32,000 bases of DNA from an uncultured archaeon (GCA_964577555.1 CAZNZM010000003.1:92915-124914), one strand, 5' to 3'. Counted from the stretch's first letter, positions 1 to 26,679 are shown. The notes: a model not told the origin generated them from the letters alone. Numbers and translations are program-made.

Positions 1-132
1 TATGAAGATAAAAAACAGTGTGAATAGTAGTATTAAAAGTATTAAAATGTTGATTGCTATGTTGTTTTTTTTTGGTTGGGTTTTTAATTGTTCATTTGGA
101 TAAGTCATATTATAGGAACTACTGATGCTTAA

Positions 133-335
133 TTAATTTTTTCGTATTTTGGCGTTTTGCATGGATTTTTTGTTTTTGGTTTTTATAAAGTGTTTTGTTG
201 CTTGAGCTAATACAAACCATTTTTTTTATTTTTTTTTATGTTTTTTTTTTAATTTTGTGTTTTGGTTGTTATGGTTGGTTAAGCTAGTTTTTTTTGTTGT
301 TTTAAATCAAGGTTTGTTGGTCTTTTTATTTTTTT
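133..335 (+). repeat. T-rich intergenic repeat block A, a degenerate copy of the family seen at four other loci
   Basis: Long T runs on the + strand are punctuated by short GC islands (ttgagct at 202-208, ggttggtt). A taattttgtgttttggttg segment resembles the AAATTGTTTTGTC module of the other blocks. The block lies 3' of the minus-strand gene ending at 336. A further T-rich patch is at 61-95. Confidence 0.55.
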
Positions 336-3300
336 TTAATTTGAAAAGCATGTGTTGGCGTTGAATCCTTCGTTGGATAGGTTGTTTAGTTTGTCTCTGA
401 AATTAGAGATTATTTCTTGTTCGTTCCAGTATATTCCTACGTTTAGAGGTGCTTTTGAGTATCCTTGTTCGATTGTTCCGTATGCTATGCATGTTTGTTC
501 GTTTTCTATTTTGTTTAATGTATCGCTTATTGTCCATAATGCTTGGCTTGGGTTGTCGAGTGTGATTTCAGTATCTGTTCCTTTTATGTATCTTGCACCG
601 CTGATATTTCCATTGTCATTTAATGTTGGAACGTATATTACTCCTTGGTTTTGGCAGGCGTTTTTTATTCTTATTTGGTCGCCTTTACTTGGGGCATAAA
701 GTATTGTTTCAAGAGCAATGTCGTTTTTGGAAGTGCTTTCCCTTCCAAATACATATATTACGCGTGTGTTTTCCAATTCTTTGGCTATGTCGCATTTTGG
801 GCCAGTGTATGAGCTTAGTTGTGAGTCTGTTCCTATTAGTTCTGGCAATGGTTTTCGAGTGTCAAGATCGTTGCATATCGGGGTTTCATCTTTTAGATAT
901 GCTATTTCCACTAGCCTTGCAAGACTTGGGCCTGCATCTATGCTTCCTTTGCTATCTTTTATAATGTATCCCATGGCGTTTTTTTTGCCATCGTTTTCTG
1001 CTTTGAAAATTATTGGTATTGGCAGCGAGGCAGCGAATGTCATGGAGTATTCTGGGGTTTGGTTGTTTGTTTCTTTTTTTGAGATTGAAAGTATTTTTCC
1101 TGGTTCGTTTTTGCTTAAACTTATAAAGTCGTTTTTGCGTTCTACTTCAATTATTGCAATTGGTTTGGAGTCGTTTGTTGTTGGAATTGTATAAACGTCA
1201 AAGTCGTGCCTTTCGTTCAATATAAAAAATGGGACTTGGCTGTTTTGGTTTTTTAGTTTGAAGCCAACTCCGTAGCCGTCTCTATGCAATACGTCTCCGG
1301 TTTTTCCAACGTAGGCGTCGATTGGCAGATAGTATAGCAGGTTTGCTGGGAATTCTTCGTCAGTTATTTTTGTGAATTTGACTAATATTTTTGCTTTTGG
1401 GTTTCCTTCATTATCAAATAATTTTTGGAATTTTGAATCGTCCAATTCAAACGAAATTGTAATCAAGTATTTTCCTGGTTGGAGTATTGGTTCTGGCGTT
1501 GAGAATACAAGCCTTGTTTGGTCTTTGAAATATTTGTCCCAGGACATTTGTTTGGCGTTTCCTGTAGTATAGTATTTGATTATTTGTGCTTGGTTGTCAA
1601 AAAATCGTTCACGCATAAAGGCGTCAAAGTCGTTTCTGAAGTCTTGAGAAAAGCCGTCTCGCATCATATAAACTGGGAAAGATAGTTTAGAATTGGCTTG
1701 TGCAATGTTTCCTTCAGATATTAAATCGTTTATTGTGTTGAGTTTTTTTATTAGCATTATTGAAAATTGTGTTGAATCGCATACGTTATAATTGCCTAAA
1801 TTGTCTGGAGAACAAAAGTTTTCTGAAATGTTGTTGGGTCTCCATTCGTATTTTATTTTTGGTTTTACGTCTTTGCCTGTAAATGCAGTATTTCTGCCTG
1901 TTGAAATAATAGAGCCATCAAGTTCTCGGCATATGCCTGCTGAAACGGCTTTGATTTCAATCATGTATTTTTCCTTGTCAATCCAAGCCAAATTTGTATT
2001 TGTTATTATTGGCTCGTCAGTTATTACTTTTCTTGAAGATGTTCTTCCGTAAACTCTTGCACTGTTTGGGTTTTCTTGTATTATAAAAATTTCGGTGTCG
2101 TTGCTTGCTATTCTTTGTCCTAAAGTGTTAGTAGTGAATTTTTCTCTTGTTAATGTATTTGTGAAGCTGACTTTTCCGATTGTGAAAGAAACCATGCCGT
2201 GGTTGCCAATTGGAAGTTCAGGTGAGAACAAGCCAAGGTCTTTTGTACCTTCAAAAATATTGATTGTTGCTTTTTGTAATGGTGTTTCGGCTTTTGTATA
2301 GCTTTGAGGTCCAAAAGAGATGTCAATAATTCTGTCTTGAACTGTTTCTCCGTCAAAAGTTTTTCCTATGCGAAAGAAATCGCTTTTGTAATTGTTGCCT
2401 ATACTTGGATCATTTACTCCTATTATGCCTTCCATTTTCCAAGTGTAATTTTTGAATGTTTTGCCTTCTGGGTCTATTTCCCCTGGAACAGTGAATTCTG
2501 CTAATAGTGATTCTTCTATGTCGCCTGTGTGTGAATTATTGTAATATTTGAGTGTTTCTGGTTTGTTGCATGCGTCGCCAGAATTTGGAACGGCTACGCT
2601 GTGAAAGCTTCTTGACACCACTAGTCTTCCTGTTTCGTCATAAATTTCAAAGAAATGAACTGGGACGCCGTATGATGTTGTTTCGGGGCTGTCGTTGCAG
2701 AATTGTGCGTAATATTTTTTTCCAGGTTCTACTTGGAAACTTCCTGTTTTTAAAAATGGGGTGATTGCAATTGCGTTTACCGTGAATTCCACGTCCATAT
2801 TGATTGGCTCTATTTTTTTTCTTGAATCGGCTGTTTTTACCCCGTATATGTCTGAATATGTTATTTTTAGGGATAGTTGTTCTTGTTGTGGTGAAACGTT
2901 TGGTCTTTGAGCTGTTGCTTTCATTTTCAAAATATAACTTGCGTTTCTGCCTAATTCCAAACCTGGTTTGAAATCTGGAAAACTGCAATCTTTCAAATAC
3001 CCTCGCGAACCTCCGGTGCTGCAAAAACCTTCTGCGGGTTCCACGCTGTCTATTTTTATATCTACGTTGCTTTCATTTTTTACTTCCCAGAAGAAATTCA
3101 CTTCTTTTTCCGTTTCGTTTCCCCAAATGCTTTTAAGCAATCCTATTGTGTTGCTTTTTGCTGGTTTTATGCTTATTTGTCCTGGCACTACTATTATTTG
3201 TATATCCGCGTATTTTACCCAGTCATTAGGGTTTGTCGGATTTGCATTTATTTTTCTTGTGTATTCTATTCTGAAATCATATGTTCCGGCTTGGTTGAAA

Positions 3301-3704
3301 GGCAATGATTCCAAATAATCAGTTTTGATTCCATGCAATACGTTTCCTCCGTCGCATGCTTCGGCGTTTGTAATTTCATAGCCTTTTATCCATTCTTCTT
3401 CGGTTCCAAGCCCTGTTATTTTTACGACTTTTAAAGGCATTTTGACTTCTCTTCTTGCGCCATCCACGCATTGGTCTATGTATGTTGAAATGTTTGTCAG
3501 TTTTAGTTTTGTTCCTTCTGGCACAACAAATGTGCGTTTATTGTTGTTGGATGTTATTTCTTTGAATTCAGGTGTAAAAGTTATTGTCATGGATGGCGAT
3601 GTATTGATTTCAAAGTAATGGCAGTGCCTGCCTGCAAAAACAGGTGAAGAAAATAGCGTTAGGATTATTGGCAATAATAATGCAATTGCTTCAAAGCGTT
3701 TCAT
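336..3704 (-). CDS. Large secreted surface protein (about 1122 aa), beta-sandwich-rich (CARDB/NEW3-like segments), function unknown
   Basis: The track ORF is 336..3731. I trimmed the start to the ATG at 3704 because GGAGG (revcomp of 3712-3716) lies 7 nt upstream. The product then begins MKRFEAIALLLPIILTLFSSPVFAG, a classic signal peptide. There is no C-terminal TM and no catalytic motif. It overlaps the upstream gene by 14 nt. Confidence 0.85.
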   Translation of the reverse strand: MKRFEAIALLLPIILTLFSSPVFAGRHCHYFEINTSPSMTITFTPEFKEITSNNNKRTFVVPEGTKLKLTNISTYIDQCVDGARREVKMPLKVVKITGLGTEEEWIKGYEITNAEACDGGNVLHGIKTDYLESLPFNQAGTYDFRIEYTRKINANPTNPNDWVKYADIQIIVVPGQISIKPAKSNTIGLLKSIWGNETEKEVNFFWEVKNESNVDIKIDSVEPAEGFCSTGGSRGYLKDCSFPDFKPGLELGRNASYILKMKATAQRPNVSPQQEQLSLKITYSDIYGVKTADSRKKIEPINMDVEFTVNAIAITPFLKTGSFQVEPGKKYYAQFCNDSPETTSYGVPVHFFEIYDETGRLVVSRSFHSVAVPNSGDACNKPETLKYYNNSHTGDIEESLLAEFTVPGEIDPEGKTFKNYTWKMEGIIGVNDPSIGNNYKSDFFRIGKTFDGETVQDRIIDISFGPQSYTKAETPLQKATINIFEGTKDLGLFSPELPIGNHGMVSFTIGKVSFTNTLTREKFTTNTLGQRIASNDTEIFIIQENPNSARVYGRTSSRKVITDEPIITNTNLAWIDKEKYMIEIKAVSAGICRELDGSIISTGRNTAFTGKDVKPKIKYEWRPNNISENFCSPDNLGNYNVCDSTQFSIMLIKKLNTINDLISEGNIAQANSKLSFPVYMMRDGFSQDFRNDFDAFMRERFFDNQAQIIKYYTTGNAKQMSWDKYFKDQTRLVFSTPEPILQPGKYLITISFELDDSKFQKLFDNEGNPKAKILVKFTKITDEEFPANLLYYLPIDAYVGKTGDVLHRDGYGVGFKLKNQNSQVPFFILNERHDFDVYTIPTTNDSKPIAIIEVERKNDFISLSKNEPGKILSISKKETNNQTPEYSMTFAASLPIPIIFKAENDGKKNAMGYIIKDSKGSIDAGPSLARLVEIAYLKDETPICNDLDTRKPLPELIGTDSQLSSYTGPKCDIAKELENTRVIYVFGRESTSKNDIALETILYAPSKGDQIRIKNACQNQGVIYVPTLNDNGNISGARYIKGTDTEITLDNPSQALWTISDTLNKIENEQTCIAYGTIEQGYSKAPLNVGIYWNEQEIISNFRDKLNNLSNEGFNANTCFSN

Positions 3705-5406
3705 TTTTTTGCCTCCTTGCAGACAAAGCAATTAGAACTAATAAGACAATTATGATTGCGGCAAGTATGATAAATTCAAATTGAACACTGAATTGTTCTT
3801 TGTAATTTTCAATTTGTGTGCTTGATTCTTCTTCACATGTTCCTTTACAGCAAATTCCTTTTTCTGATGCAATGTCAATTTTGTTTCCGTTGCATTTTGT
3901 GTTTGATTCGCAAAGCACTCCGCCAAGTTCGTTGCACGATTTTGGTTTTTCAACTGTTAAATCTATTTCTTTTGATATTTGTTTGTTGTTTTTGAAGTCG
4001 TTTACAAGCACTAAATATTTTTTTCTTTCAATTGGGTAATATTTTTCAAGGCAATTGCCGGAATCGAAAGATTCATAATATCTTTCTAGGGAATTTTCTG
4101 CTTCAACAACCGAAATTGACAAATTAATGTCTTCTTCGTTGCCGTTTGCTGCAAAGCCGCAAGCCTTTATTTTGAGTTCTGATGGCTCTGAAAAAATCGT
4201 TTCAAGCCTGATTTCTCCCTTTTTTCCGTTATAATCTGTTTCTATTGGAAATATTTCAAAGCAATACTTGTCGTGGGTTGTGTTGTCTTTTTCTATTGCG
4301 CTGCATACTGTGAATTTTTGGTATGCCAAATCAGGCGTGAAATTTGCGTTTATTTCTTTTTCAATTTCTTTGAATTTTAAAGCAGGTATGTGTTGTTTTC
4401 CTTCGAATATTTTTTTTGCGTCTTTTTCTATCCAAATTGAAACGTTGAAATCGTAAAAATCCGGTTTTGTGTAATGGTCCGGAGAAGAGCCTATTAATGC
4501 ATAAATTTTGACTGGTTTGTTTGGTTTTAATTCATCTCCATAAAAAGCCATTTTTTTTATTTTTGCGGTGGGTCCTTCAACTATTGCTCTATTTCTGTAA
4601 AGCGAGATTGTTTTGCCGTCTTTGTCCATTAACTCTATTCTGATTGCGTATGCGCCTGGCATTGCTGGTGCTTTGAGTGTTAAATTGACTTGTTTTTCTT
4701 CGTTGGCTTCCAATTCAAGGTTTGTTTTTGCTTCTGTTAAAAATTTTTCGCATGCTGTGTCGTCCCAATCGCATAAACCAGTCCAAAGAACAAGGTTTTG
4801 TAATTTTTGATTTGACTGGTTTTTCAAGAAAATTTTACCTTCAATGTTTTGTTCTGGTTTAACCCAAGTTCCGATTGGTCCTGTGTCTCCGTTGAATTCT
4901 GTTTTTGTTCTTATTATGGTTGCGTTAGGGAAAGAGCCTGTTCCTTGTACTTTGAATTCTTTTTCAACAGGGTTGAGGAAAATATGAGGTATTCCGGTTA
5001 TTGGGGATCTTTTTGTTTTGAAGTATGCTAAAATAGTGTAAGTTCCTTCTTTGATATCTTTTGGCAGTGGGATTTCAAATGGGATTTTTTTTTCTTGGTT
5101 GGGCAACAATGCTATTGGGAACTTTTTTTCAAGGAAAATGTTTCCATTGTCTGAGAGTTGGGATGGATAACTTATGCTGCCTTTTGGTCCTGAAGCGATT
5201 TCTACAATTATTTCAGAATCATAAAATCCTGCTGAATCAGAATTGCCTGCTCTAAAATATCCTTTTAAATTTTCTCCCGCCTTGAGATTGTCTTTTTCAA
5301 GGTTTATTTCTACAAATCCTGTAAAAAATATGCTGGCTGATTGGGTTGGCATTGCCGAGAGAATCAGGATTATAATGCACATTGTTTTTGCAAAATAGGT
5401 TGCCAC
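3691..5406 (-). CDS. Type I membrane surface protein (571 aa): signal peptide, CARDB/NEW3-like beta domains, Cys-rich knot, C-terminal TM anchor
   Basis: The GTG start at 5406 directly abuts the TAA (5407-5409) of the upstream gene. The N-terminus MATYFAKTMCIIILILSAMPTQSAS looks like a signal peptide. Segments such as LELEANEEKQVNLTLKAPAMPGAYAIRIEL are CARDB/NEW3-like. The C-terminus reads CNELGGVLCESNTKCNGNKIDIASEKGICCKGTCEEE, then FEFIILAAIIIVLLVLIALSA, then RRQK. Confidence 0.85.
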   Translation of the reverse strand: MATYFAKTMCIIILILSAMPTQSASIFFTGFVEINLEKDNLKAGENLKGYFRAGNSDSAGFYDSEIIVEIASGPKGSISYPSQLSDNGNIFLEKKFPIALLPNQEKKIPFEIPLPKDIKEGTYTILAYFKTKRSPITGIPHIFLNPVEKEFKVQGTGSFPNATIIRTKTEFNGDTGPIGTWVKPEQNIEGKIFLKNQSNQKLQNLVLWTGLCDWDDTACEKFLTEAKTNLELEANEEKQVNLTLKAPAMPGAYAIRIELMDKDGKTISLYRNRAIVEGPTAKIKKMAFYGDELKPNKPVKIYALIGSSPDHYTKPDFYDFNVSIWIEKDAKKIFEGKQHIPALKFKEIEKEINANFTPDLAYQKFTVCSAIEKDNTTHDKYCFEIFPIETDYNGKKGEIRLETIFSEPSELKIKACGFAANGNEEDINLSISVVEAENSLERYYESFDSGNCLEKYYPIERKKYLVLVNDFKNNKQISKEIDLTVEKPKSCNELGGVLCESNTKCNGNKIDIASEKGICCKGTCEEESSTQIENYKEQFSVQFEFIILAAIIIVLLVLIALSARRQKNETL

Positions 5407-8400
5407 TTAATCAACTCCTTTATAGTAATCTTCAATTGTAATTAAAAAGAATGGATCTTCTAGGTTGTTTGTCAGGCCTGTGTTGGAAAGTATCAGTATT
5501 TCTTCTCTTGAGTTTGGGGTTTTGTTTATTTGCAATGGTGTTATATTGAGTTTTCTTGTGAATTTGTTGGCAAGGTCATTGTAAGGGTATGATTTGTTCA
5601 GGTTGTTTTCAGCTGGATCTTCTAGGCCTGTGTATGCTTTGTTTATTATGGCTACTTTCTCTTTGCCGTTTAAGAAGTCAAGCGTGTATTTGTTGTTGAG
5701 TTCGTCGCCCGCAAGCATTTCTGGGTTAATGCGTGTTATTACTAGTCTTGCTGTTTCGTCGTTAATTATAACTTTTACTATTCCTGCTCTATAAATTTTT
5801 GTTTCGCCTTTGTATTTTGCCAAAACATAAATCGGGTGTATCCCTAATTGCTTATTGGATGATACGTTGAAAGTCGCTTTGTTTCCAGGTGTTAGCGTAA
5901 TAGGTTCTGATTCGTTTAATGTTTCCGAAAGCCTTGTTATTGAATCTTTTATCACTATGTCGCTTTCCGTGTCTTTTGCAAGTTTTATTTCTATTTCTTT
6001 TTCGCATTCGTTTTGTATATTAAAATTGGTTGTATTTTTTCTTTGTATTTGAAGGATTAATTCATTTTCTATTTCTGGTGTTTCATTGTTTTCTTTTGAA
6101 AATTTTACGCATTGTATTGTTTCTTTTTGCGGCAAAGGGATTGACACGGTTTGCAATTCTGCGCTTGCGGTTTTATAATTTGGCAGTTTTTCAGCTTTAA
6201 CAATTATTTTTTTGCCGCTTTCAAAAGGCGGCACCGTCAAATTTACTATTCCTGAATTGTTTGTCAGGTAATTTGTGTTTTTTGATATTTGCGTGTCCGG
6301 GTCTTGAGGGTTTTCATACATTTTTATTTCGGCTTCGTTTATTGGGTTGTTTCTTTCATCTTTTGCGGTGGCAAGAACCATTGTTGTTATTCCTGCAGTG
6401 ATTGTAGTTGGTTGCAGTGTCAGTAAAATGTTTTTTAATCCTTCAACTGCTAAATTGGCTATAAATGTGTCTCCTTTGGTTCCAAGGTTCAAGCTTAAAT
6501 TCAAGTCTGCTTCTTGCAAAGGTTTTTTTGCAACGAATTCAACTCTGTATTCTTGTCCTGTTATTTGTTGGTTTGCGCCGAATTCTCCTATTGTTCTCTC
6601 GTTTCCAACAGTTATTTCAAGGGGGTTTAAAGCGTTTTTGTTTTTTACTGTCATTTTGACGTTTGAATAGCTTTTTCCTGATAAATTCAAAAGCGAGTAT
6701 GTTAACGTATATGTTTTTCCTTCAAGCAGCTTGTAAATTTTTTGTTCTTCCAGCGGAATGGTTCTTTCTTCATCAATCAAATTTACTGATGTGAAAACGA
6801 TTCCGCAATTAGATTTGCATATTGGGGCATCAAGTCTTGCACTCCAAAAATATAATTCTCTTGGTTTTGGTTTAAATGTTTCAACACCGTTAATTGTTCC
6901 TTTTGCACCCCAGCGCATTTCTATGATTGTATCTGGTTTTTGTGTTTCTGGAATTTCTTTTATTTTTACTGCCGCTGAAATTATGTAAGTGGTTTTTTCG
7001 GATGTGCCTAATGAAATTACTGCTTGTTTAGCGTCGCCAGAGGTTATGGAACAATCAGCATAGTCGTTTTCAGGGTTGAAGCATCCTGAATAAACCACTT
7101 CTGTTGATGCCGCATTTATTCCTGTTATTACTATTTTGCTGTCATTGGAGTTTGTTTGGTTTTGAAGCCCGGCTCTGAAAACCGCTTTGAGGTTTTCTAT
7201 TTTGTCTCCTGTTTGAAGCCTGAATTTGAAAACGTATTTTTTTCCTGATTCTATTTTGTCTGCAATTCTTCCATCTTCTTTGAAAACGTTTTCCAATTCT
7301 ATTTTGAATTCTGGATTTGCTGGGGGTTCTGGCAGTTTGACAAGTGTTACTGTTTCTATTTTTTTTACGTCTGGTTCTATTGTTATTTGTCCTGTTTCAG
7401 TTTTCAAATACCCGTTTTTTTGTATTATTAGTTTTGGTTTTGCATCTACTTTGAATTTTACTGATTCTGTCAATCCGTTGTTTTGAGTGATTTTTTTGGC
7501 TAGTTCTTTTCCGTTTATTGAATCTATGAAACTGACGTTTGCACTTTGCACTGCTTTGCCGTCAACGTCAACTACTTTGACTGCCAATTCGCCGTTAGCC
7601 AGTACAATGGTTATTGGCAATTCTAGAGTTCTGCCTGGTCTGAGGTCTGCTTTTGCCGATTTGCCTGTGTTTTTTGCACCATCCACGTATTTCACTGCTT
7701 CTGCGTAATAATTGCCCGGTGGCATGTTGTTTGCTTCAAATATTCCGTTTGAATCGGTTTCGCCTTCAACGAAAATAATTGGGTTGGATTTTTCATAAAT
7801 AGCCACGCTTGCGTTTGGTACGCTCTTTCTTGAATAGTCATTGACAATTACTTTGATTTTGCCCGAGTTAGATTGTTCAGCTTTTTCGATTTTGATTTCT
7901 TGCGGCTGTGTGCTGTCAATTGGTTTGAGATCTAAATGCGGTATTATTTTTCTGACATATTCTGGGTGGCTTGCTATTGCTGAATAGTTTTTGTCAGGTT
8001 CCAGGTTTATGAAAGAGACAATTCCGTCAGAGCCAGATGTTTTTAATACGCCTGAGTTTTGCAAGCCGATTATTAGGTTTGTATTGACTCCTTCTACTGC
8101 TGTTGAGGATTTTTTGTCAATAAATTTCAAGAGTGCCTTTTTTGCATTGTTTGGTTTTTCCAAGAGTATTTCTATTGTTTTTGTGTTTCCTTCTGAAAAT
8201 TCAGCAGCTCCTATTGTGAATTCGTTGCTTTGTCCTATTGTATAACCTGTGTTTTCTGGAGGAATTGCTTCTGCAATATAAGTTCCGAGTGGGACGTTTG
8301 GAATTATTTTGGATCCGCTGTCGTCTGTGTAGCCTCCGTCAATTATTGTTATGCCGTTAGATTTTATTTTGATTTTTGTTCCGCCTATGCCTGTAAGCAG

Positions 8401-9315
8401 TGTTTTGTCTTTGACGCTGACTCTTAAAGTTGCATTGATTTTCTTTTTTGAAAGCCTGATTACTTTTGTCCCTTCAAATGATGCCAAGTCGATTAATTCT
8501 CTTGCATCGTTGAAACCGGTTGCAGAAACATTTATTGTGAGCATTCCGCAATTTGATTGCACTGAAATCCTGTGGTTTGGTCCGTTGCCTCTTATTGGCG
8601 AGGGTGAAATTCCTGAATTGTTGCATGAAAATGTAAGGCTTACATTGACGTTTGGCGCTATTAGATTGCGCTCCTCGTCCCTTAGCTCTATTCCTATTTG
8701 TTTCACTTTTGTTTCTTCGTATTTTTTGAGTTTTATGCGGTAAAGTTTTTCAGGTTGTATATCCAATACATCGGCGTATTTTTTGAATCTGTTGTCATCA
8801 ACCGAAACATTGATTTTTTTTCCGTAAAATTCGGTTGTGAATTCCCCGCTTGCATTTGTTTTTTTTGTTTCAGTTTTTTTTCCAAGAGAAAAATTAACTG
8901 ATATGTCTTTGACTGGCTTGTTTGCTTCATCGGTTACGATGAATTTTGCCGGGCTTTTTGTAAAACCGAAAAATTTCAATATTGGGTCAAAAATCGTTTT
9001 TAAGATGTTGCCAATGGGTTCAAGTGGCCCGCCTTTTTCGAATAATTTTATTATTGGCGAAAGTGTTTCTGCAATGAATTTTACAACTGGTTCAAGTGGT
9101 CCGCCGTGTCCGCCAAAAAATAGAAGCAGAAGCAAAGAAACTACGAAAAGAAAAAATAGGATTACTAGTATGAATGATGGAAAGTATTTGTCAATTGGGT
9201 CGATTATATTGTATATTGGGATTTTTTCGTTTGCTTTGTCAAGTAGTTCATAATACTTGTCTTCAAAAAAATAATAAACTTCTTTGATTTGTTGTATAAG
9301 GTCCTCCAATGCCAC
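5407..9315 (-). CDS. Giant N-terminally anchored surface protein (1302 aa) with multiple CarboxypepD_reg-like beta-sandwich domains
   Basis: This is a single long ORF with a GTG start at 9315 and no in-frame ATG nearby. One TM (FILVILFFLFVVSLLLLLFF) follows about 46 cytoplasmic residues. At least five segments match the CarboxypepD_reg pattern, for example IKVIVNDYSRKSVPNASVAIYEKSNPIIFVEGETDSNGIFEANNMPPGNYYAEAVK and LAVKVVDVDGKAVQSANVSF. Confidence 0.88.
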   Translation of the reverse strand: MALEDLIQQIKEVYYFFEDKYYELLDKANEKIPIYNIIDPIDKYFPSFILVILFFLFVVSLLLLLFFGGHGGPLEPVVKFIAETLSPIIKLFEKGGPLEPIGNILKTIFDPILKFFGFTKSPAKFIVTDEANKPVKDISVNFSLGKKTETKKTNASGEFTTEFYGKKINVSVDDNRFKKYADVLDIQPEKLYRIKLKKYEETKVKQIGIELRDEERNLIAPNVNVSLTFSCNNSGISPSPIRGNGPNHRISVQSNCGMLTINVSATGFNDARELIDLASFEGTKVIRLSKKKINATLRVSVKDKTLLTGIGGTKIKIKSNGITIIDGGYTDDSGSKIIPNVPLGTYIAEAIPPENTGYTIGQSNEFTIGAAEFSEGNTKTIEILLEKPNNAKKALLKFIDKKSSTAVEGVNTNLIIGLQNSGVLKTSGSDGIVSFINLEPDKNYSAIASHPEYVRKIIPHLDLKPIDSTQPQEIKIEKAEQSNSGKIKVIVNDYSRKSVPNASVAIYEKSNPIIFVEGETDSNGIFEANNMPPGNYYAEAVKYVDGAKNTGKSAKADLRPGRTLELPITIVLANGELAVKVVDVDGKAVQSANVSFIDSINGKELAKKITQNNGLTESVKFKVDAKPKLIIQKNGYLKTETGQITIEPDVKKIETVTLVKLPEPPANPEFKIELENVFKEDGRIADKIESGKKYVFKFRLQTGDKIENLKAVFRAGLQNQTNSNDSKIVITGINAASTEVVYSGCFNPENDYADCSITSGDAKQAVISLGTSEKTTYIISAAVKIKEIPETQKPDTIIEMRWGAKGTINGVETFKPKPRELYFWSARLDAPICKSNCGIVFTSVNLIDEERTIPLEEQKIYKLLEGKTYTLTYSLLNLSGKSYSNVKMTVKNKNALNPLEITVGNERTIGEFGANQQITGQEYRVEFVAKKPLQEADLNLSLNLGTKGDTFIANLAVEGLKNILLTLQPTTITAGITTMVLATAKDERNNPINEAEIKMYENPQDPDTQISKNTNYLTNNSGIVNLTVPPFESGKKIIVKAEKLPNYKTASAELQTVSIPLPQKETIQCVKFSKENNETPEIENELILQIQRKNTTNFNIQNECEKEIEIKLAKDTESDIVIKDSITRLSETLNESEPITLTPGNKATFNVSSNKQLGIHPIYVLAKYKGETKIYRAGIVKVIINDETARLVITRINPEMLAGDELNNKYTLDFLNGKEKVAIINKAYTGLEDPAENNLNKSYPYNDLANKFTRKLNITPLQINKTPNSREEILILSNTGLTNNLEDPFFLITIEDYYKGVD

Positions 9316-9439
9316 GAAAAAACCCCGCTTTTATTTTGGACTCTTAAATAAAGGGTTATAAAGTATTTAAAGTAATTTATGGTTGTTTAATAGCTTAAAA
9401 ATCGTTTTTTCTTTGTTTTACGTTATTTAAGTCATTTTT

Positions 9440-9775
9440 TTCACTTTTAAAAAAATCAAAATTTTTGTTGTCTATTTTGGTAGTCGGCTTTTGGAATTTT
9501 TTTCGCCAAGCCAATTTTTGTATTTTTTTTGTCTTTGGTTTGGTTTTTTTTTGCGAGCCATTTTTTTTTAGTCATGTTTATTTTTTTTTTAATTAAAATT
9601 GTTTTGTTTTTTTTTGATTTTTTTTTATTTTGATATTTGCGGACTTTTTTTGTCATTTTTTTTGTTTTTGCCCTGTTTTTTTTGTTATCTGATTTTTTTA
9701 TTTTTTAATTTTTGAATTTTTTTTTAGATACAGATTATTTTTTTGTCTTTGTCTTGCTTTTTTGTTGTTTTTCAA
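9440..9775 (+). repeat. T-rich intergenic repeat block B, between divergent gene starts
   Basis: GC islands are GCCAAGCC at 9505-9512 and GCGAGCC at 9553-9559, each followed by a T run. An aaattgttttgttttttttt module starts at about 9596. The orientation matches the other blocks. Confidence 0.7.
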
Positions 9776-9785
9776 ACTAAACTTT

Positions 9786-9793
9786 TTTATATT
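9786..9793 (+). promoter_or_regulatory. TATA box (TTTATATT) for the GH130-like gene, which is probably leaderless
   Basis: TTTATATT is centred about 24 nt upstream of the ATG at 9814. No Shine-Dalgarno lies between them. Confidence 0.45.
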
Positions 9794-9813
9794 TTAATAT
9801 CCTAGTTAATGAA

Positions 9814-10905
9814 ATGAAAATTGAAAGTAAGTTGCTTGCGAAGCCGGAAGATGTTGTTCCAACCACGCCGAAGTTCAGGGTCAGGGGTGTTTTTAACCCT
9901 GCGGCTATAAGGTTGAAGAGTAAAAAAATACTTCTTTTGGCAAGAGTGGCTGAAACTCCTTTTCATGGTGAAAAATATTTTATTGCGCCAAGGTTTGCCG
10001 GCAAGTCAAAGACTAAAATTATAATGGAAAAAATTTTGAGAAAAGAAGGCAAATTCAAAGAAAATTATTTTCTCTTTGATTCTGAAATTGCTAGGTTGCC
10101 TACTATTTCTCATTTGAGAAAGATTTTGCTTGACGAGTCTGGCATGAATGTTGAAAAGATTTCCAACAAACCTGATTTTATGGGTTTGGAAAATGATGGG
10201 GATTTTGGCGTTGAAGATCCAAGGGTTACTTGTTTTAAAAAAGAGGGTTTTTGTGCAATGACTTATGTTTCTGTTTCAATGTACACTGGCGTCTCAACTT
10301 CTCTTGCAATTACAAAAGACCTTAAAAATTGGTCTCGTGAAGGAATAATTTTCAGGCAACAAAACAAGGATGTTGTGATTTATCCTGAGAAAATAAATGG
10401 TTATTATGTTGCTTTGCATAGGCCTGAAGGTACGATGATTTTTGACAAGCCGAGAATTTGGCTTTCTTATTCCAAGGACTTGGTGTTTTGGGGGCGGGAC
10501 AAAGCAATTATGAGTCCGCGGAAAGGGTGTTGGGACGGTTTAAGGATAGGTAATGGGAGCGTTCCGCTTAAAATTGATGATGGTTGGCTCGAGTTTTATC
10601 ATGGGGTAAGTCTTTCCGATCAAAACAATCCGGATTCTCAAAAAATTTATTGTGCAGGTGCGGTAGTATTTGACTATAAGGATCCTTCCAAGATTTTGGC
10701 TCGTTCTCCTGCAAAAAAGCCTTTGCTTTCGCCTGAACAAGATTATGAAAAATCAGGTTTTGTCAGCCATGTTGTTTTTCCTACTGCCGCTTTGCTTGAC
10801 TCTGACAAAAAGCATGTTTTGGTTTTTGGCGGAGGCGGAGATTCTTCGATTTTTGTCAAGAGGCTTGCCCTCAATGACGTTTTGAACTCGTTGGAATGGA
10901 GTTAG
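9814..10905 (+). CDS. GH130-family (DUF377/PH1107-like) glycosidase or beta-mannoside phosphorylase-like protein
   Basis: Family-typical motifs are RGVFNPAAIRL, GVEDPRVTCF and IGNGSVPLKIDDGWLEFYHGV. At 363 aa it fits a five-bladed propeller of this size. Confidence 0.85.
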   Translation: MKIESKLLAKPEDVVPTTPKFRVRGVFNPAAIRLKSKKILLLARVAETPFHGEKYFIAPRFAGKSKTKIIMEKILRKEGKFKENYFLFDSEIARLPTISHLRKILLDESGMNVEKISNKPDFMGLENDGDFGVEDPRVTCFKKEGFCAMTYVSVSMYTGVSTSLAITKDLKNWSREGIIFRQQNKDVVIYPEKINGYYVALHRPEGTMIFDKPRIWLSYSKDLVFWGRDKAIMSPRKGCWDGLRIGNGSVPLKIDDGWLEFYHGVSLSDQNNPDSQKIYCAGAVVFDYKDPSKILARSPAKKPLLSPEQDYEKSGFVSHVVFPTAALLDSDKKHVLVFGGGGDSSIFVKRLALNDVLNSLEWS

Positions 10906-10952
10906 CTATAAATACATCTTGTGCAACAAATTCTTATAGGTGAAAAATTACG

Positions 10953-13133
10953 TTGGTTTCATCTGCAAGAAAATATCTGATTTTATCATCTTATCCTCCT
11001 CGTGAGTGCGGGATTGCGACTTTCACTAAAGACCTCTCGGATTCTATACAAAAAAGGTTTGGCAATTCGCTTGTTTCTAAAATCGCGGCTATCAATGAAT
11101 CAAATTATGTGCTTAGGACTTATCCTAAAAAAGTTTCAATTACTTTGACTGAAAATGATATTTCAAGTTATGAGGCTTTGGCAAAAAAAATAAATCGTAT
11201 GAAGAATGTTGAAGTGGTGAATATTCAACATGAATTTGGTTTGTTTGGCGGTCTTTTTGGCAGTTATCTTTTGACTTTCATGGAGCTTTTGAATAAAAAA
11301 ATAATCACGACGTTGCATACTGTTCTTGAAGATCCTAAACAGGAAATGAAAGAGGTTGTGAGGCGAATATTTGAATTAAGCGATAAAGTAGTTGTTATGA
11401 CTGAAAATGCAAAGGAAATTCTTGCAGACCACTATCAAGTTGATGTTTCGAAGGTTGAGGTGATTCCTCATGGCGTGCCTGCAATTAGTTATGAAAAAAA
11501 CGAGAATGCTAAAAAGAAGTATGGTTTAAAGGGCAAGACAGTTCTAATGACTTTCGGCATGCTTAGCAAAGGAAAGTCGCTTGAAACTGTAATAAACGCG
11601 TTGCCAAAAGTTGTCAAAAAATTTCCAAATGTGGTTTATTTGATAGTTGGGCAAACCCACCCTGTTGTAAGGCAAAAAGAGGGCGAGTCTTACAGAAACA
11701 TGTTGAAAGAATTGGTTGCTCATCATAATTTGGGTGATAATGTCAAGTTTCTTGACAAATATTTGACTTTAAAAGAAATAATAGAGTGTTTGCAGATGGC
11801 TGATATTTATCTTGCGCCTTCTTCTGATGCAAGGCAAATATGCAGTGGCACGGTGAGTTATGCCATGGGCGCTGGAAGAGCCATAATAGCGTCAAAAACG
11901 AAGTATAATGGAGAGGTTTTGGCTTCAAAAAGGGGTATTATAATAAAAGAAAATGATCCTGATGCTTTTTCAAGAGCCATAATAAGGTTGCTTAAGAATC
12001 ACGAGCTAAGGGCTGTATTGGAAAAGAATGCTTTTGAGTATAGCAGAAAAATGACTTGGCAGAATGTTTCTACTAAATATTTCAATGTGATTCGTTCTTT
12101 GAGCCAATTTTCAATAAGCGAATTTGGAAAATTGCCTAAGTTTAATTTTAAGCATTTTTTTAGAATAACTGATGATTTTGGCATGATACAATTTTGCAAT
12201 TATACTACTCCGGACATTGAAAGCGGTTATACTCTTGATGACAATGCAAGAGCTTTGGTTGTTTCAAAGAAAGCGTTTGAATTGTTTGGCTACAAAAAAT
12301 TTGTAAAAATGGCGGACAAGTTTTTGGATTTTGTTGATTATTGTTATGAAAGCGATGGAGTAATACACAATGTCGTGAATTATAAAAGAGAATATGCTGA
12401 TGATATTGGAAGCGAAGATAGTTATGGTAGGGCTTTGTGGGGGCTTGCGGAAACGGTTGAGTCTAACATGCCGTTGCAAATCAAGGAAAAAGCCAAGGCA
12501 ATACTTTCCAAGTATATAAAAAGCGGAATTGAAGTCAGTTCTCCGAGAGCCGAAGCCGATTCTCTTATTGGATTGACAAAAGTAATGGATCATTTTCCAT
12601 CGGAAGCAGAAACACATGAAAAATTATTGGATTCTTTGATATGCAAATACAACGATTCAAAGGATGAAGATTGGAAATGGTTTGAAAGTTATTTGACGTA
12701 TGCTAATGGCAGAATACCTGAAGCTCTTTTTGAAGCGCATAAATTTGACAAGTCTGGCGAAGCGAAAAATATTGCAATTGAATCAATGGATTTTTTGACT
12801 AAAATTCTTTTTATTGAAGACAAACTTTTTCCAGTTGGACAAGAAAAATGGTATCATCGCAAAAGCGAAAGGTCAATGTTTGATCAACAACCAATAGAGG
12901 CTTCAGTGATGACAACCGCTTATATTAAAGCTTTTGAATCCACTGGGAACCAAATTTATATGAAAAGAGCCCATGACGCGTTTGATTGGTTTTTAGGCAA
13001 AAATGCGCATCATTTGATGGTTTATGACGAAGCAAGTGGAGGATCGTTTGACGGAATAACGCGCAATGGTGTTAATGCAAATCAAGGTGCCGAATCAACA
13101 GTGTCTTATTTGCTTGCAAGGCTTTCTTTTTGA
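10953..13133 (+). CDS. Glycosyltransferase family 4 (group 1) fused to an uncharacterised helix-rich C-terminal domain of about 340 aa
   Basis: The TTG start at 10953 has AGGTGA (10938-10943) 9 nt upstream. The N-terminus ILSSYPPRECGIATFTKDL is typical of GT4. The GT-B C-lobe region contains LAPSSDARQICSGTVSYAMGAGRAIIAS. Residues about 390-726 (YGRALWGLAETV, WFESYLTYANGRIPEAL) have no motif I can name. Confidence 0.85.
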   Translation: MVSSARKYLILSSYPPRECGIATFTKDLSDSIQKRFGNSLVSKIAAINESNYVLRTYPKKVSITLTENDISSYEALAKKINRMKNVEVVNIQHEFGLFGGLFGSYLLTFMELLNKKIITTLHTVLEDPKQEMKEVVRRIFELSDKVVVMTENAKEILADHYQVDVSKVEVIPHGVPAISYEKNENAKKKYGLKGKTVLMTFGMLSKGKSLETVINALPKVVKKFPNVVYLIVGQTHPVVRQKEGESYRNMLKELVAHHNLGDNVKFLDKYLTLKEIIECLQMADIYLAPSSDARQICSGTVSYAMGAGRAIIASKTKYNGEVLASKRGIIIKENDPDAFSRAIIRLLKNHELRAVLEKNAFEYSRKMTWQNVSTKYFNVIRSLSQFSISEFGKLPKFNFKHFFRITDDFGMIQFCNYTTPDIESGYTLDDNARALVVSKKAFELFGYKKFVKMADKFLDFVDYCYESDGVIHNVVNYKREYADDIGSEDSYGRALWGLAETVESNMPLQIKEKAKAILSKYIKSGIEVSSPRAEADSLIGLTKVMDHFPSEAETHEKLLDSLICKYNDSKDEDWKWFESYLTYANGRIPEALFEAHKFDKSGEAKNIAIESMDFLTKILFIEDKLFPVGQEKWYHRKSERSMFDQQPIEASVMTTAYIKAFESTGNQIYMKRAHDAFDWFLGKNAHHLMVYDEASGGSFDGITRNGVNANQGAESTVSYLLARLSF

Positions 13134-14778
13134 ATTTGTTCAAGTTATTTAAAATTTTTTTAGCTGCTTTTTTGTCAATGATTATTCTGCAATTTTTATG
13201 GGTTTGAAGCAACGAAGCAGGTGTTTTTTCGCTTTTTTTTCCGAAGAAAACTTTGTAAATAGCGTCTGCTTTTTTTTCACCGCTTGCAACGAGCAGTGCT
13301 TTTTTTGAAAGCATTATTTGTTTAGGGCCTATTGTTATTGCGTGCCATTTTTGGTTTTTTGGAAAAGACACTTTGTTTGCTTTTAATGTCTGGTTTGACA
13401 ATTTTGTCAAATGTGTTCCCAAATTGAATTTGGTTCCCGGCTCGTTAAAGGCTATGTGTCCGTTCTCTCCTATGCCGAGCAAAATCAGGTCTATTCCGAG
13501 TTTGTTGCAGATCAAATCAAATCTTTTGCATTCGTCTTTATAGTCATTTTCAAGTTTATTAATCAAATAAAGGTTTTTTTTGTTGAAATTTGCGTTTGAA
13601 AGAAAGTGTTTTTCAATATCGTGCAAGAGGGTTTTGTTTTTATTCAGTCCTATGTATTCGTCCATTTGTATGAAAGAAGCTTTTGAAAAATCCATTTTTT
13701 TGGTTTTGGCTAGTTTGCCGATTTTTTTGTATGCAATTCTTGGCGTCTTTCCTGAAGCAAAGCAAAAAACTGGGTTTGGTTTGTTATTCAAGGAAAATGT
13801 TATTTCTTCTACAATCCTGTTTGACATTGCTTCGTGGTTTTTTACTATTTCCAATTCAATCAAGTTTTGGGAGTTGGCAAAATTCCGAATATCTTGGCTT
13901 AGAGTATTGGCAAAGCCGTTCATGGAAATTTTTCTGAAAGCCACGTAGTTTCCTATTCTCAAACAATTCAAATCGCTGAAACCATTTATTAATCCGAATA
14001 CAAAACCGGCGTTGAAGAAATCCCCTGCTCCTGTTGAATCTTTGGATTTTCCTTTGAATGCGGGAAAATAATATTTTTGGCCGTTGGAAAAAAGAACTGC
14101 GCCTTTTGGGCCTTTCTTCAGCACGATTTTTTTGAATCCAATTGATGCTAATTTTTTCAAAGCTTGGTTTTCTTCATTTGTTTTGGTTATATGCCTTAAT
14201 TCCACTTCGTTGAGAAAAAACAAGTCAACGAATTTTGCAAAGTTTTTGACTTCCCATTTTCCATATTCGTCAAAAGTCGCGTCAAAAAAAACGAGGCCGC
14301 CTTTTTTTCTTATTTTTTTCAGCAAGTTTCTAAATCCTTTTTTCATACCTAAAAGGTGGAAAAATCCTCCAAAGTAAGTTATGTCATCTTGTGAAAGAGC
14401 TGGCAATAATTTTTTTGCAACTTTTTTTGAATCAAGTTCCAGCAAGCATCCTTTGTTTGAAAGTATTGCCCTTTCTCCAGATTTTGCAACCATTATGTTT
14501 GAAATTCCGTTTTGGTTGTTTGAATTGAATAGCATGCTTTTTACATTGAATTTTTCGAGTTCTGATTTCAAAAAATCTGTGTAAATGTCTTTTCCAATAA
14601 TACTGATTAATCTTGTATCAACGCCGAGGTTGCCAAGTGCGCATGCAAAGTTTGCCGCGTTTCCGCCTAAGGTGATTTGGAAATTTTTTGAAAAATGTTC
14701 TTCTCCAAAAATTGGTTTGCATGATACTTGGCTGTGCAAATCAACGTTCAAATCGCCTATCGCAAAAACTTTTTGCAT
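13072..14778 (-). CDS. Fusion protein: PfkB-family sugar kinase (N-terminal) and NagB-type glucosamine-6-phosphate deaminase/isomerase (C-terminal)
   Basis: PfkB motifs are GGNAANFA and DSTGAGDFFNAGF. NagB motifs are FASGKTP, MDEY and LLGIGENGHIAFNEPG. The track ORF starts at a TTG at 14802. I prefer the ATG at 14778 (MQKVFAIGDLNVD), which has a TATA-like element about 30 nt upstream. Confidence 0.9.
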   Translation of the reverse strand: MQKVFAIGDLNVDLHSQVSCKPIFGEEHFSKNFQITLGGNAANFACALGNLGVDTRLISIIGKDIYTDFLKSELEKFNVKSMLFNSNNQNGISNIMVAKSGERAILSNKGCLLELDSKKVAKKLLPALSQDDITYFGGFFHLLGMKKGFRNLLKKIRKKGGLVFFDATFDEYGKWEVKNFAKFVDLFFLNEVELRHITKTNEENQALKKLASIGFKKIVLKKGPKGAVLFSNGQKYYFPAFKGKSKDSTGAGDFFNAGFVFGLINGFSDLNCLRIGNYVAFRKISMNGFANTLSQDIRNFANSQNLIELEIVKNHEAMSNRIVEEITFSLNNKPNPVFCFASGKTPRIAYKKIGKLAKTKKMDFSKASFIQMDEYIGLNKNKTLLHDIEKHFLSNANFNKKNLYLINKLENDYKDECKRFDLICNKLGIDLILLGIGENGHIAFNEPGTKFNLGTHLTKLSNQTLKANKVSFPKNQKWHAITIGPKQIMLSKKALLVASGEKKADAIYKVFFGKKSEKTPASLLQTHKNCRIIIDKKAAKKILNNLNKFKKKALQANKTLLIRHLDLH

Positions 14779-14835
14779 CAAACCATTCCTTGTTTTAGAC
14801 AATTAATTTATACTTTTGCGTTGAAGTTATTAATA
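14779..14835. promoter_or_regulatory. 57-bp divergent promoter region shared by the kinase-deaminase fusion and the PIG-L gene
   Basis: One AT-rich element, aattaatttatac (about 14801-14813), reads as a TATA-like box on both strands. It sits about 26-30 nt from the ATG at 14778 (minus) and the ATG at 14836 (plus). Confidence 0.4.
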
Positions 14836-15417
14836 ATGGTTAACGCTTTGGTTGTAGTTGCGCATCCTGACGATGAAACAATCTGGATGGGTGGAAAAAT
14901 AATTCGTGAAAAGGATTGGAATTGGACTATTGTTTCTTTGTGCAGAAAAGATGATCCTGACAGGGCTCCAAAATTTTTTAAGGTTTGTCGCGAACTTAAT
15001 GCGAAGGGTTTCATATCTGATTTGGATGATGAACATCCTGAACAATGGCTTCCAAGTATTGATGAAGTTGTAAAAAGGGTTGAACCTGTAGTTCATGACA
15101 AAAAATTTGATTATGTTTTTACTCATGGAGCTAATGGGGAATATGGACACAAAAGGCATATTGAGACTCACAAAGCTTTGGTTGAAATGGCTAAATCAAA
15201 AATGTTAGATTTTAAAGAATTAATTTGTTTTGATTATAAGAGGAGAGAAGTGCCTTTTATGGCTGTTCCCTCTGGCGATGCTCCGATAAAATTGGAGTTG
15301 TCTGATAATGAATTTAAAAAAAAATTTTGGCTTGTGAACGAGGTTTATGGATTTAGGCGGGATATTTTTGAGTGTCTTAGTTGTTCGAAAATTGAAGCTT
15401 TTAGGAAGGTTTTTTGA
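14836..15417 (+). CDS. PIG-L/LmbE-family N-acetylglucosaminyl deacetylase
   Basis: The N-terminus is MVNALVVVAHPDDETIWMGG, carrying the AHPDDE zinc-binding signature, and a later THGANGEYGHKRH motif is present. I trimmed the start from the track's 14728 to the ATG at 14836. Confidence 0.88.
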   Translation: MVNALVVVAHPDDETIWMGGKIIREKDWNWTIVSLCRKDDPDRAPKFFKVCRELNAKGFISDLDDEHPEQWLPSIDEVVKRVEPVVHDKKFDYVFTHGANGEYGHKRHIETHKALVEMAKSKMLDFKELICFDYKRREVPFMAVPSGDAPIKLELSDNEFKKKFWLVNEVYGFRRDIFECLSCSKIEAFRKVF

Positions 15418-16575: not shown

Positions 16576-16589
16576 AAATTTGATTTTAA

Positions 16590-18195: not shown

Positions 18196-18292
18196 CGTGA
18201 TATTAAGAATGCCTTTTGAGTTTTTATTAATTGCTGCAAATTGAATTTTTATTTTTGTGGGGCATGGAAAAAACAATTTGCTTACTTTTGTA

Positions 18293-19099: not shown

Positions 19100-19154
19100 A
19101 GCAGAAATACTGCGCCAGTATTATTATATATATCATAAACAGATTTATTTGGTT

Positions 19155-26526: not shown

Positions 26527-26679
26527 GCCGATTTTTTTGTGTTGTTTTTTTTGTGATTTTATTTTTTTTTAATTTTAAATTGTTTTGTCTTTTTTTTGTC
26601 TTGTTTTTTTTGTTTGTTTTTGGCGAGCCGTTTTATTTTTTTATTTTTTTTGTTTGAAATTTTGTTTTTTTTCGGGCTA

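Follow-up and report, generated by a model that had tools for sequence, protein, structure and literature searches.

What does an uncultured archaeon build with three giant, tightly coupled genes for envelope proteins? The question is raised by the left end of a 32,000-nucleotide stretch of its DNA (GCA_964577555.1, CAZNZM010000003.1:92915-124914; the whole stretch is called the window below, and positions are counted from its first letter), which an earlier note, made from the sequence alone, described as a three-gene operon. The three genes are real and coupled, but the unit contains a fourth one, and we name them g1 to g4. We think it probable that they constitute a conserved four-gene envelope cluster of DPANN archaea of the Iainarchaeota type, which builds a glycosylated, membrane-tethered stalk-and-head complex at the cell surface; its job would likely be contact with the outside, e.g. 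with host or partner cells, a polysaccharide or a surface. As for the source, the gene order of the window is collinear, well beyond the cluster, with that of metagenome-assembled genomes (MAGs) of 'Candidatus Iainarchaeum/Diapherotrites', which indicates a DPANN archaeon of the Iainarchaeota/Diapherotrites type. That it is episymbiotic, as the earlier note supposed, is an assumption.

In the list of open reading frames (ORFs), g1 (9315..5407) encodes 1302 aa and g2 (5406..3691) 571 aa, both from a GTG start and both on the minus strand, like all the features of the four genes located below. The ORF of g3 runs from 3731 to 336; its ATG at 3704 defines a gene (336..3704) of 1122 aa, the length also given by independent gene callers on two public contigs, and the same callers match the calls of all three genes. 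The g1/g2 junction reads ...GGAGTTGATTAAGTG...: the TAA of g1 (5409-5407) is followed immediately by the GTG of g2 (5406), with a GGAG upstream. The g2/g3 junction reads GCAAGGAGGCAAAAAAATGAAACGCTTTGA, with the ATG of g3 at 3704 and the TGA of g2 at 3693-3691, i.e. an overlap of 14 nt, and a GGAGG (3716-3712) lies 7 nt upstream of that ATG. The ORF list and the reading of these junctions thus confirm the three coupled minus-strand genes of the earlier note. The fourth gene had escaped it: the left edge of the window truncates g4, leaving only the first 36 codons (1..108) of a 334-aa protein. This protein is complete in L001, a locus carrying an identical g2, where it lies at 13255-14259, on the same strand and 228 nt downstream of g3.

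The product of g1 has a single hydrophobic segment (residues ~40-74) on the hydropathy scan, with a signal-anchor transmembrane helix at residues ~47-67 (9115..9177), and is predicted from its sequence to be anchored by its N-terminus as a type II (N-in) protein. Residues 1-45 (9181..9315), presumed cytoplasmic, form in the alignment of g1 orthologues a motif, K..YY..ED+YY..LDK.NEK.PVY..IDPIDK..PSF, common to all of them and to all the fused giants described below. A hidden Markov model (HMM) of this motif matches g1-type ORFs only (E 1e-23 to 5e-30), and the Pfam scan gave no family match for it. Beyond the membrane, residues 121-660 (7336..8955) consist of six tandem units of ~90 aa, of CarboxypepD_reg / Big_1 type. 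The whole protein matches CarboxypepD_reg (PF13620) at 8e-19, with 68.1 bits for a cut-off of 32.3, and Big_1 (PF02369) at 5e-14, with 52.7 bits for a cut-off of 34.9; SpaA- and SdrD_B-type matches are also obtained. When the protein is sliced, five of the six N-terminal units match CarboxypepD_reg, each weakly (1e-6 to 0.026) and below the cut-off singly, and a further Big_1-like unit appears near residue 1000, which is the only Pfam match in the ~640 aa that follow the array. The description previously given of g1—1302 aa, one signal-anchor segment and at least five CarboxypepD_reg-like domains—therefore holds.

Two minor points concern g1. Just outside the membrane, residues 68-120 (window ~8956-9114) contain a duplicated GGPLEP-x(10-12)-P-I/L-x-K-x-F motif, present in the window, in its 88%-identical relative L002 and in L010, but absent or shortened in most orthologues, as in a variable juxtamembrane linker. 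Besides, g1 looks split in L002, but only because a scaffold gap, seen as a run of N, interrupts it.

For g2, hydropathy shows an N-terminal segment (residues 1-20) and a C-terminal one (537-567), in agreement with the 571-aa protein with a signal peptide and a C-terminal anchor that had been announced. Hydropathy and the AlphaFold2 (AF2) model place the transmembrane helix at residues 543-563 (3718..3780); the tail beyond it is basic (RRQKNETL). Immediately before the helix, residues 491-524 (3835..3936) contain six Cys, and their pattern C-x7-C-x5-C-x13-CC-x3-C is conserved in the family alignment, while the module is absent from the Aenigmatarchaeota members. What stands of the 'Cys knot' of the earlier note is thus these six conserved residues, in a predicted Cys-rich module. 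The AF2 model built from the family alignment (pLDDT, the predicted local distance difference test, 81.8) is all-beta, with about five sandwiches, hairpins in the Cys stretch and the C-terminal transmembrane helix. Its helices are limited to residues 2-17 and 539-567, so that the only long one is the anchor, and it contains no coiled coil. From sequence and model together, g2 is predicted to be a membrane protein of type I, in which a signal peptide is followed by about five beta-sandwiches, a Cys-rich mini-domain and a C-terminal transmembrane helix.

At the opposite, g3 is a protein of 1122 aa with a signal peptide only, as had been proposed: the hydropathy scan finds an N-terminal segment at residues 4-26 and no other transmembrane segment. 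The signal peptide (residues 1-24, 3633..3704) is predicted to be cleaved between SSPVFA and GRHC, and Cys28, just past this site, is nearly invariant. The AF2 model, again from the family alignment (pLDDT 83), places beta-sandwiches at residues 28-576 and a mixed alpha/beta module at residues 590-1122. Within the former, the profile matches of the ORFs found downstream of g2 delimit an N-terminal beta-sandwich region, g3N (residues about 28-300, 2805..3623). The latter, g3C (residues about 590-1122, 339..1937), is defined by the HMMER family as well as by the model, where its pLDDT is ~90, and we call it the 'head'.

The detection of the g3C family depended on the technique used. A k-mer-indexed search with g3 gave one relative (88% identity) and an alignment search with g3C added nothing; it is the exhaustive HMMER search that revealed the family, with 311 cluster representatives, of which ~17 are full-length relatives while the rest cover residues ~570-1100 only. 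The module is always C-terminal, in DPANN surface proteins of 700-2800 aa, and carries the motifs VCDSTQF, MRDGFSxDFRxDFDxF, LLYYLPID and HRxGYGVGF. It has no Pfam or PDB sequence match, and none of the top 50 PDB chains found by Foldseek for g3 is attributable to it. A papain/transglutaminase-like reading of g3C, from the alignments and from the model by eye, was rejected: Cys642 does start a long helix, but the alignments show no conserved His partner for it, and it is more likely engaged in a disulfide.

More widely, the profiles of g2, g3, g3C and g4 find nothing significant among PDB sequences, and g2 and g3 have nothing above the curated cut-offs of Pfam or NCBIfam. The Pfam and NCBIfam scans detect no enzyme family in g1-g3, which agrees with the earlier view of envelope proteins devoid of enzymatic motifs.

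Are these genes kept together? A k-mer search with g2 returned 16 proteins of 31-45% identity, and among the species representatives of GTDB the g2 family occupies 29 loci, whose titles are apparently all those of DPANN-type archaeal MAGs (Iainarchaeum/Diapherotrites, Aenigmatarchaeota, 'Nanohalarchaeota', Nanoarchaeota and Altiarchaeia among them). This assignment is made by title, and in two cases, where the title names a Chloroflexi bacterium or a Thaumarchaeota archaeon, the label seems wrong. ORFs were called in all loci and scored with the profiles, which separates three tiers. In the first (L001-L014, L037 and L043) we find g1-g2-g3, with g4 where the flank is long enough; in the second (L016-L020) g1 is longer (~1500 aa) and g3 shorter (790-950 aa), with g2 between them; in the third (L023-L036) g1 is missing, and g2 is always followed by a large ORF with a signal-peptide-like start, which matches only positions ~30-294 of the g3 profile and often has its own terminal transmembrane segment. 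The orthologues of g1 stand upstream of g2 in 14 GTDB species loci (L008-L021), and the order g1-g2-g3 is kept in at least 12 GTDB species (L008-L014, L016-L020), so that the genes, which the earlier note required to be syntenic in relatives, are indeed so. Several of these GTDB loci also have g4 after g3, as do L003, L005, L007, L037 and L043.

The junction downstream of g2 is still more constant. In all 30 loci with sufficient downstream sequence, a large ORF starts at -52 to +71 nt relative to the g2 stop, in most cases overlapping g2 by 1-43 nt, and it always opens with a signal-peptide-like segment. In distant DPANN lineages g3N is the sole part of g3 common to these ORFs (L023-L033 match it with E 4e-13 to 5e-3). 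This suggests that the evolutionarily stable core of the system is g2 plus the N-terminal part of g3, and makes g3N, on sequence grounds, the candidate for binding g2.

Gene fusions seem to us the strongest evidence that g1 with g3, and g2 with g3, each act as one unit. By re-scoring the HMMER relatives of g3 with g1-g4, we found ~40 cluster representatives of 2100-2800 aa that combine the N-terminal motif, the transmembrane segment and the beta-sandwich array of g1 with a C-terminal g3C; the named ones, from Diapherotrites and Micrarchaeota MAGs, are called 'hypothetical' or 'carboxypeptidase regulatory-like domain-containing' proteins. The metagenome locus L042 has one of these giants, of 2359 aa and with only one transmembrane segment, at the N-terminus; g4 comes directly after it. 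The second fusion occurs in an Aenigmatarchaeota MAG (L036, 7809-11408), where g2 and its downstream gene form a single in-frame ORF of 1200 aa. Its four hydrophobic segments correspond to the signal peptide, the g2 transmembrane segment, the downstream signal peptide and a C-terminal transmembrane segment; with the g2 anchor, a short basic loop and the downstream signal peptide all retained, the topology of the separate proteins is preserved. Such an ORF may have arisen by a true gene fusion, or else the g2 stop codon was lost through a mistake in the assembly. As for g1 and g3, they would best be seen as one giant protein in two pieces rather than as partners independent of each other. The earlier idea of a tightly co-translated surface assembly is supported in that coupling, synteny and fusions all point to a physical or functional assembly, and must be amended as to the independence of g1 and g3.

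In L016 (12207-17660), L017 (12616-17697) and L020 (12076-17574), directly after g1-g2-g3 comes another giant gene of g1 type, longer than 1700 aa and cut off by the end of the locus, which in L016 and L020 shows the beginning of a match to g3C. Split and fused forms therefore coexist as tandem paralogues.

Several signs are those of surface proteins. N-X-S/T sequons reach 1.77 per 100 aa in g1, 1.40 in g2 and 1.34 in g3, for 0.24-1.1 in twelve cytoplasmic neighbours, and in g1 they exceed composition-matched shuffles (z = 2.8); along with this enrichment goes an acidic isoelectric point (pI), 5.5. Conserved Cys and Cys pairs are frequent in the family alignments of g2 and g3. The ratio of nonsynonymous to synonymous substitution rates (dN/dS), 0.10-0.24 for all genes against the 88%-identical relative L002, indicates that the genes are real and under purifying selection. 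Meanwhile the identity with the orthologues of L003 and L005 is only 33-41% for g1-g3, when it is 42-78% for the flanking enzymes and 53% for g4, and the order g1-g2-g3 persists despite this divergence. Exposed proteins typically diverge in this manner, fast yet under purifying selection.

The fourth gene behaves differently. In alignments, g4 is the best-conserved member of the cluster, with 52-57% identity across species. The protein consists of an N-terminal transmembrane segment and one conserved domain, for which Pfam gives ABC_transp_aux in four of five members (best E 0.0023) and weak IFT52_GIFT and ThuA matches; GldG (TIGR03521) is matched by two of eight members (best E 0.024), and DUF4350 was not matched in the Pfam scan. 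We take this as a weak similarity to proteins of the GldG/ThuA type, which are class I glutamine-amidotransferase-like.

From these observations we infer which subunits may interact, which would bind which, their glycosylation and their function. The product of g1 would be inserted N-in by its signal-anchor helix and project a stalk of tandem beta-sandwiches. That of g3, exported by a cleavable signal peptide and devoid of an anchor of its own, would carry further beta-sandwiches and the distal alpha/beta head of ~500 aa, g3C. The type I membrane protein g2, whose synthesis would be coupled to that of g3, would hold the N-terminal part of g3 at the membrane, and g4 might be a membrane-anchored, GldG/ThuA-like accessory subunit that serves in assembly, in maturation or in the binding of glycans. 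Sister lineages have the g1 stalk and the g3C head joined in one polypeptide, and our operon would thus be the split form of a giant anchored surface protein.

Some of our own results weigh against this scheme. The locus L042 has the fused giant and g4 but no g2, so that g2 is not obligatory for the g1/g3C unit, and its anchoring role for g3 is suggested by adjacency alone. In the middle 500-700 aa of the giants we looked for a hidden copy of g2 or g3N, with no convincing match to either, the one trace being a weak g3N-like stretch in L042 (independent E-value, iE, 5e-4), hence a giant is, strictly, g1 + g3C and not g1 + g3. The N-in orientation of g1 is deduced from its domain content, not from its charge distribution. 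Instead of a binding head, g3C could be an enzyme or a lattice-forming domain. For g4, the matches that suggest its fold are all sub-threshold, and it has distant homologues in unrelated housekeeping contexts, which implies a family broader than the surface cluster. These homologues (34-40% identity; L053 8914-11266, L046, L048 and L051) are paired with a ThuA-like paralogue, which matches ThuA at 1.8e-5; one such pair is on the 1.24-Mb contig Ga0066333_11.

One could go further and consider an undescribed, DPANN-specific surface organelle that exists in two forms, the split operon and the fused giants. It would comprise an N-anchored stalk with a 45-aa cytoplasmic tail motif, a g3C head of new fold, an ancient, DPANN-wide anchor-cargo pair, g2-g3N, and a dedicated g4, and would attach Iainarchaeota-type cells to partners or substrates, the tail allowing a coupling to the cell interior. 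We regard this extended form as possible, but markedly less probable than the stalk-and-head complex taken by itself. In the literature we found no description of these families, of the cluster or of the fusions, and all members are annotated as hypothetical.

Among the other explanations, the one that survives best, although we think it rather unlikely, is that the cluster makes the main surface layer (S-layer), as a multi-component lattice like that of Sulfolobales, with g3 (with or without g1) as the canopy and g2 as the membrane stalk in the role of SlaB. The parallel is real at the level of topology: SlaB has a signal peptide, beta-sandwiches and a C-terminal transmembrane segment, like the smaller protein g2, and SlaA, like g3 with its ~1100 aa, is a large secreted protein rich in immunoglobulin-like (Ig-like) beta-sandwiches and without transmembrane segment. 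The two genes stand side by side in both cases—coupled here by the 14-nt overlap, their adjacency being found in 30 loci—and both proteins are expected to be N-glycosylated, with which the enriched sequons and the acidic pI of our proteins agree. A SlaA-like/SlaB-like pair of just this sort has been proposed, from fold and topology, in a study of Nanobdella (10.1101/2023.10.27.564410).

The resemblance to SlaA and SlaB stops there, however. Neither with single sequences nor with profiles is any solved S-layer protein matched, the 50 best PDB matches that Foldseek gives for g2 and for g3 include no S-layer chain, and g2 lacks the coiled-coil stalk of SlaB, the only long helix of its model being the anchor. 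In Sulfolobales slaA precedes slaB; in our cluster the order is anchor, then cargo. Moreover, there are extra partners, the N-anchored g1 and g4, and the cargo bears a non-Ig alpha/beta head. Pfam matches no S-layer family in g1-g3: neither MSTP/DUF1608-like nor S_layer_N/S_layer_C families are among their matches at E ≤ 1, nor among the g3C members. Orthologous MSTP-like S-layer proteins have in fact been reported in DPANN phyla (preprint 10.1101/2024.05.28.596244), including Aenigmatarchaeota, which also carry g2. The g2 family is found in 29 GTDB species only, and the tandem paralogous giants beside the operon in L016, L017 and L020 suggest a variable family of surface proteins and not one lattice protein. 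The S-layer-like lattice put forward in the earlier note thus has no positive evidence in its favor, and we favor an adhesin or an accessory envelope structure over the main S-layer.

This compares with what is proposed for cultivated DPANN. The Nanobdella study notes that the S-layer protein has so far been determined in no DPANN archaeon (10.1101/2023.10.27.564410). The candidates are MJ1_0160 ('SlaA-like') and MJ1_0707 ('SlaB-like') of Nanobdella aerobiophila, NEQ300 of N. equitans and SLP_Mh of Micrarchaeum. Like our proteins they come from the DPANN lineage and were identified by fold and topology, not by homology; those of Nanobdella and N. equitans either measure ~1000 aa and have a signal peptide, several Ig-like folds and numerous sequons, or combine Ig folds with a C-terminal transmembrane segment. 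By contrast, they are backed by expression rank or immunoblots, and neither a coupled operon nor fused giants are reported for them. The comparison is one of descriptions, to which Pfam adds only that g1-g3 match no S-layer family.

The stalk-and-head complex finds other parallels among giant beta-sandwich adhesins anchored by their N- or C-terminus, such as the C123 part of antigen I/II, Gram-positive pilins, Big_1/invasin-type arrays or the adhesin-like proteins of methanogens, in which a tandem Ig-like stalk holds a distal domain off the membrane. The best PDB matches of the g3 model in Foldseek are the C-terminal domains of streptococcal antigen I/II and the pilin BcpA, along with Fab fragments and hydin-like arrays, and g1 has the Big_1, SpaA and SdrD_B-type matches mentioned above. 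The TM-scores of g3 are nevertheless very low (0.1-0.2), so that the domain class alone is shared. Other differences are that the cluster belongs to an archaeon without cell wall, uses transmembrane helices as anchors and not sortase or a beta-barrel, is split over several polypeptides, and includes two undescribed parts, the g3C head and the cytoplasmic motif of g1. Its general kind is already familiar, namely Ig-like glycoproteins assembled on the surface of an archaeon, one subunit serving as anchor and another being secreted, and nothing in it is mechanistically surprising.

A second alternative, which we hold to be improbable, draws on the neighbourhood: the cluster could be an extracellular complex that processes or binds carbohydrates, g3C being its catalytic or glycan-binding module on a stalk, linked to the adjacent sugar genes. 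These adjoin the cluster (window 9814-18276) and encode GH130, GT4, PfkB-NagB, PIG-L, GT1 and a GDE_C/GH100-like hydrolase. The order GH130-GT4-PfkB/NagB is retained in the Iainarchaeum locus L003; in L005 and L007, on the other hand, the cluster has other neighbours, and the sugar genes lie on the other strand. The content of g3C points both ways as well. It has invariant Asp, Arg and Tyr residues, and some g3C-bearing proteins carry PKD and dockerin domains, or a sub-threshold apiosidase-like domain; yet no conserved His or nucleophile pattern is evident in its alignments, and g1-g3 contain no glycoside hydrolase, lyase or carbohydrate-binding module at E ≤ 1, marginal beta-sandwich matches apart. 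The weak relatives of g4 (GldG, ThuA and the middle domain of GH42) do come from sugar-related systems. For the stalk-and-head complex, the sugar genes could have another meaning, that of supplying the glycans of the surface proteins. As to the proteins themselves, the GT4 has 726 aa, its C-terminal ~350 aa having no Pfam match, the PfkB-NagB is a fusion of PfkB with glucosamine-6-P-isomerase, and the PIG-L is a deacetylase.

The weak similarity of g4 brings in a third one, far less probable still. A predicted archaeal membrane complex, arCOG01314 (DUF4350/GldG-like), with Ig-like 'S-layer-like' partners, has been described by Makarova, Galperin and Koonin in 2015, itself only as a prediction (PMC5898192), and the cluster might be a reduced relative of this secretion or membrane complex. 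The likeness would lie in a GldG/flavodoxin-like protein, extracellular and anchored in the membrane, whose gene accompanies those of Ig-like proteins that are secreted or membrane-bound; the weak matches of g4 and its paralogues (GldG/ABC_transp_aux, ThuA and Glyco_hydro_42M) are the same as those by which arCOG01314 was defined with HHpred. But neither a MoxR AAA+ ATPase nor a vWA protein is found in the window or in the syntenic loci L002-L007, the anchor of g4 is N-terminal where arCOG01314 has a signal peptide and a C-terminal transmembrane segment, and DUF4350 is missing from the g4 matches, which are all below threshold. This is a resemblance, not a membership.

Finally, an alpha-2-macroglobulin/complement-like protease trap split into chains, as C3 is into its beta and alpha chains, is effectively refuted by the missing thioester domain and by a viral-library control: the best PDB folds for g2 in Foldseek are certainly the beta chains of complement C3/C4/C5, E. 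coli ECAM (an alpha-2-macroglobulin), CD109 and TEP1 (E 4e-14 to 1e-11), and bMG3 and MG2 give marginal Pfam matches, below cut-offs in the cluster proteins though above for bMG3 in the giant P0037, but the TM-scores are just 0.17-0.25, generic DUF11, Big_1 and fn3 arrays of the viral library (BFVD) match the g2 model equally well (E 7e-15), no CxEQ thioester motif exists in g1-g4, Pfam finds no A2M, TED, CUB, bait-region or receptor-binding (A2M_recep) domain, and g3C is alpha/beta, not an alpha/alpha toroid. With the control scoring equally, and neither CxEQ nor TED, CUB or bait region, the g2 match is thus best read as 'tandem beta-sandwich array' and not as 'macroglobulin'. The succession of signal peptide, ectodomain, Cys-rich stem and transmembrane segment also made g2 a candidate for a class II fusogen or archaeal fusexin; this was rejected, as no fusion glycoprotein is present in the top 50 PDB or BFVD matches and the top ones are all tandem beta-sandwich arrays.

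Little has been established about the way in which DPANN archaea construct an envelope and make contact with other cells, and the few S-layer candidates come from cultivated Nanoarchaeota, Nanohaloarchaeota and Micrarchaeota. Our cluster offers a concrete, conserved and testable set of candidates for Iainarchaeota and allied lineages. About 10 kb are devoted to its four co-inherited genes, a notable share if the genome has the ~1 Mb typical of DPANN. It also defines family-level units that domain databases could take up, namely the g2 family, the N-terminal partner domain of g3, the g3C head, the N-terminal motif of g1 and the g4 family. The natural fusions—g1 with g3C, g2 with its downstream gene—predict, in a testable way, which parts are in contact. 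Even should the complex prove to be a common type of adhesin, a sizeable part of archaeal 'dark matter' would have been annotated.

The remainder of the window holds housekeeping genes: DUF63, Trm5/TYW2, a TP_methylase-family protein that is presumably diphthine synthase, a four-subunit pyruvate:ferredoxin oxidoreductase, ScpA, SAH hydrolase and adenylate kinase. With such flanks, and no relatives of g2 in IMG/VR, a viral or mobile origin of the cluster finds no support. In L002, a second cluster of large secreted or membrane proteins (14294-19457, minus strand) lies a few kb from the first. Its proteins have 469, 711, 265 and at least 930 aa, the second with a faint NPCBM_assoc match and the last with a faint Big_9/DEX1 beta-sandwich match.

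The intergenic regions of the cluster are unusual too. The 498-nt spacer between g1 (minus strand) and the GH130 gene (plus strand), 'block B' (9316..9813), is 58% T on the plus strand. It contains TATA-like TTTATTTAA and TTTAAATA elements 30-60 nt upstream of the g1 GTG, and from its sequence we presume it to be the promoter region of the cluster. The T-rich 'block A' (109..335, 227 nt) separates g3 from g4. As g4 starts at 108, to the left of it, block A is inside the cluster and is not its boundary; the earlier picture of two T-rich blocks flanking the operon is thus abandoned, all the more as similar blocks occupy three further intergenic sites. In relatives, g3 and g4 abut or overlap, with no such long T-rich spacer between them. 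A 66-aa Lys-rich ORF was called in block B by a public gene caller (window 9456-9656, minus strand, i.e. L001 3707-3907). Like the other Lys-rich mini-ORFs of the T-rich blocks, it was discarded, since they show no conservation between blocks and are probably artefacts of A runs.

Altogether, five T-rich intergenic blocks are present in the window, at 109-335, 9316-9813, 16576-17076, 26246-26810 and 31556-32000. Spacers of this length would be unusual in a compact DPANN genome. They measure about 230-565 nt, have 58-67% T on the plus strand with 7-30 runs of at least six T each, and are always T-rich on this strand regardless of the orientation of the flanking genes. They carry internal duplications and share two plus-strand motifs, GCRAGCCRTTTTTT (6 matches for 0.31 expected) and AAATTGTTTTGT (5 matches for 0.14 expected). 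From their sequence, they look like a dispersed, strand-locked family of T-rich elements.

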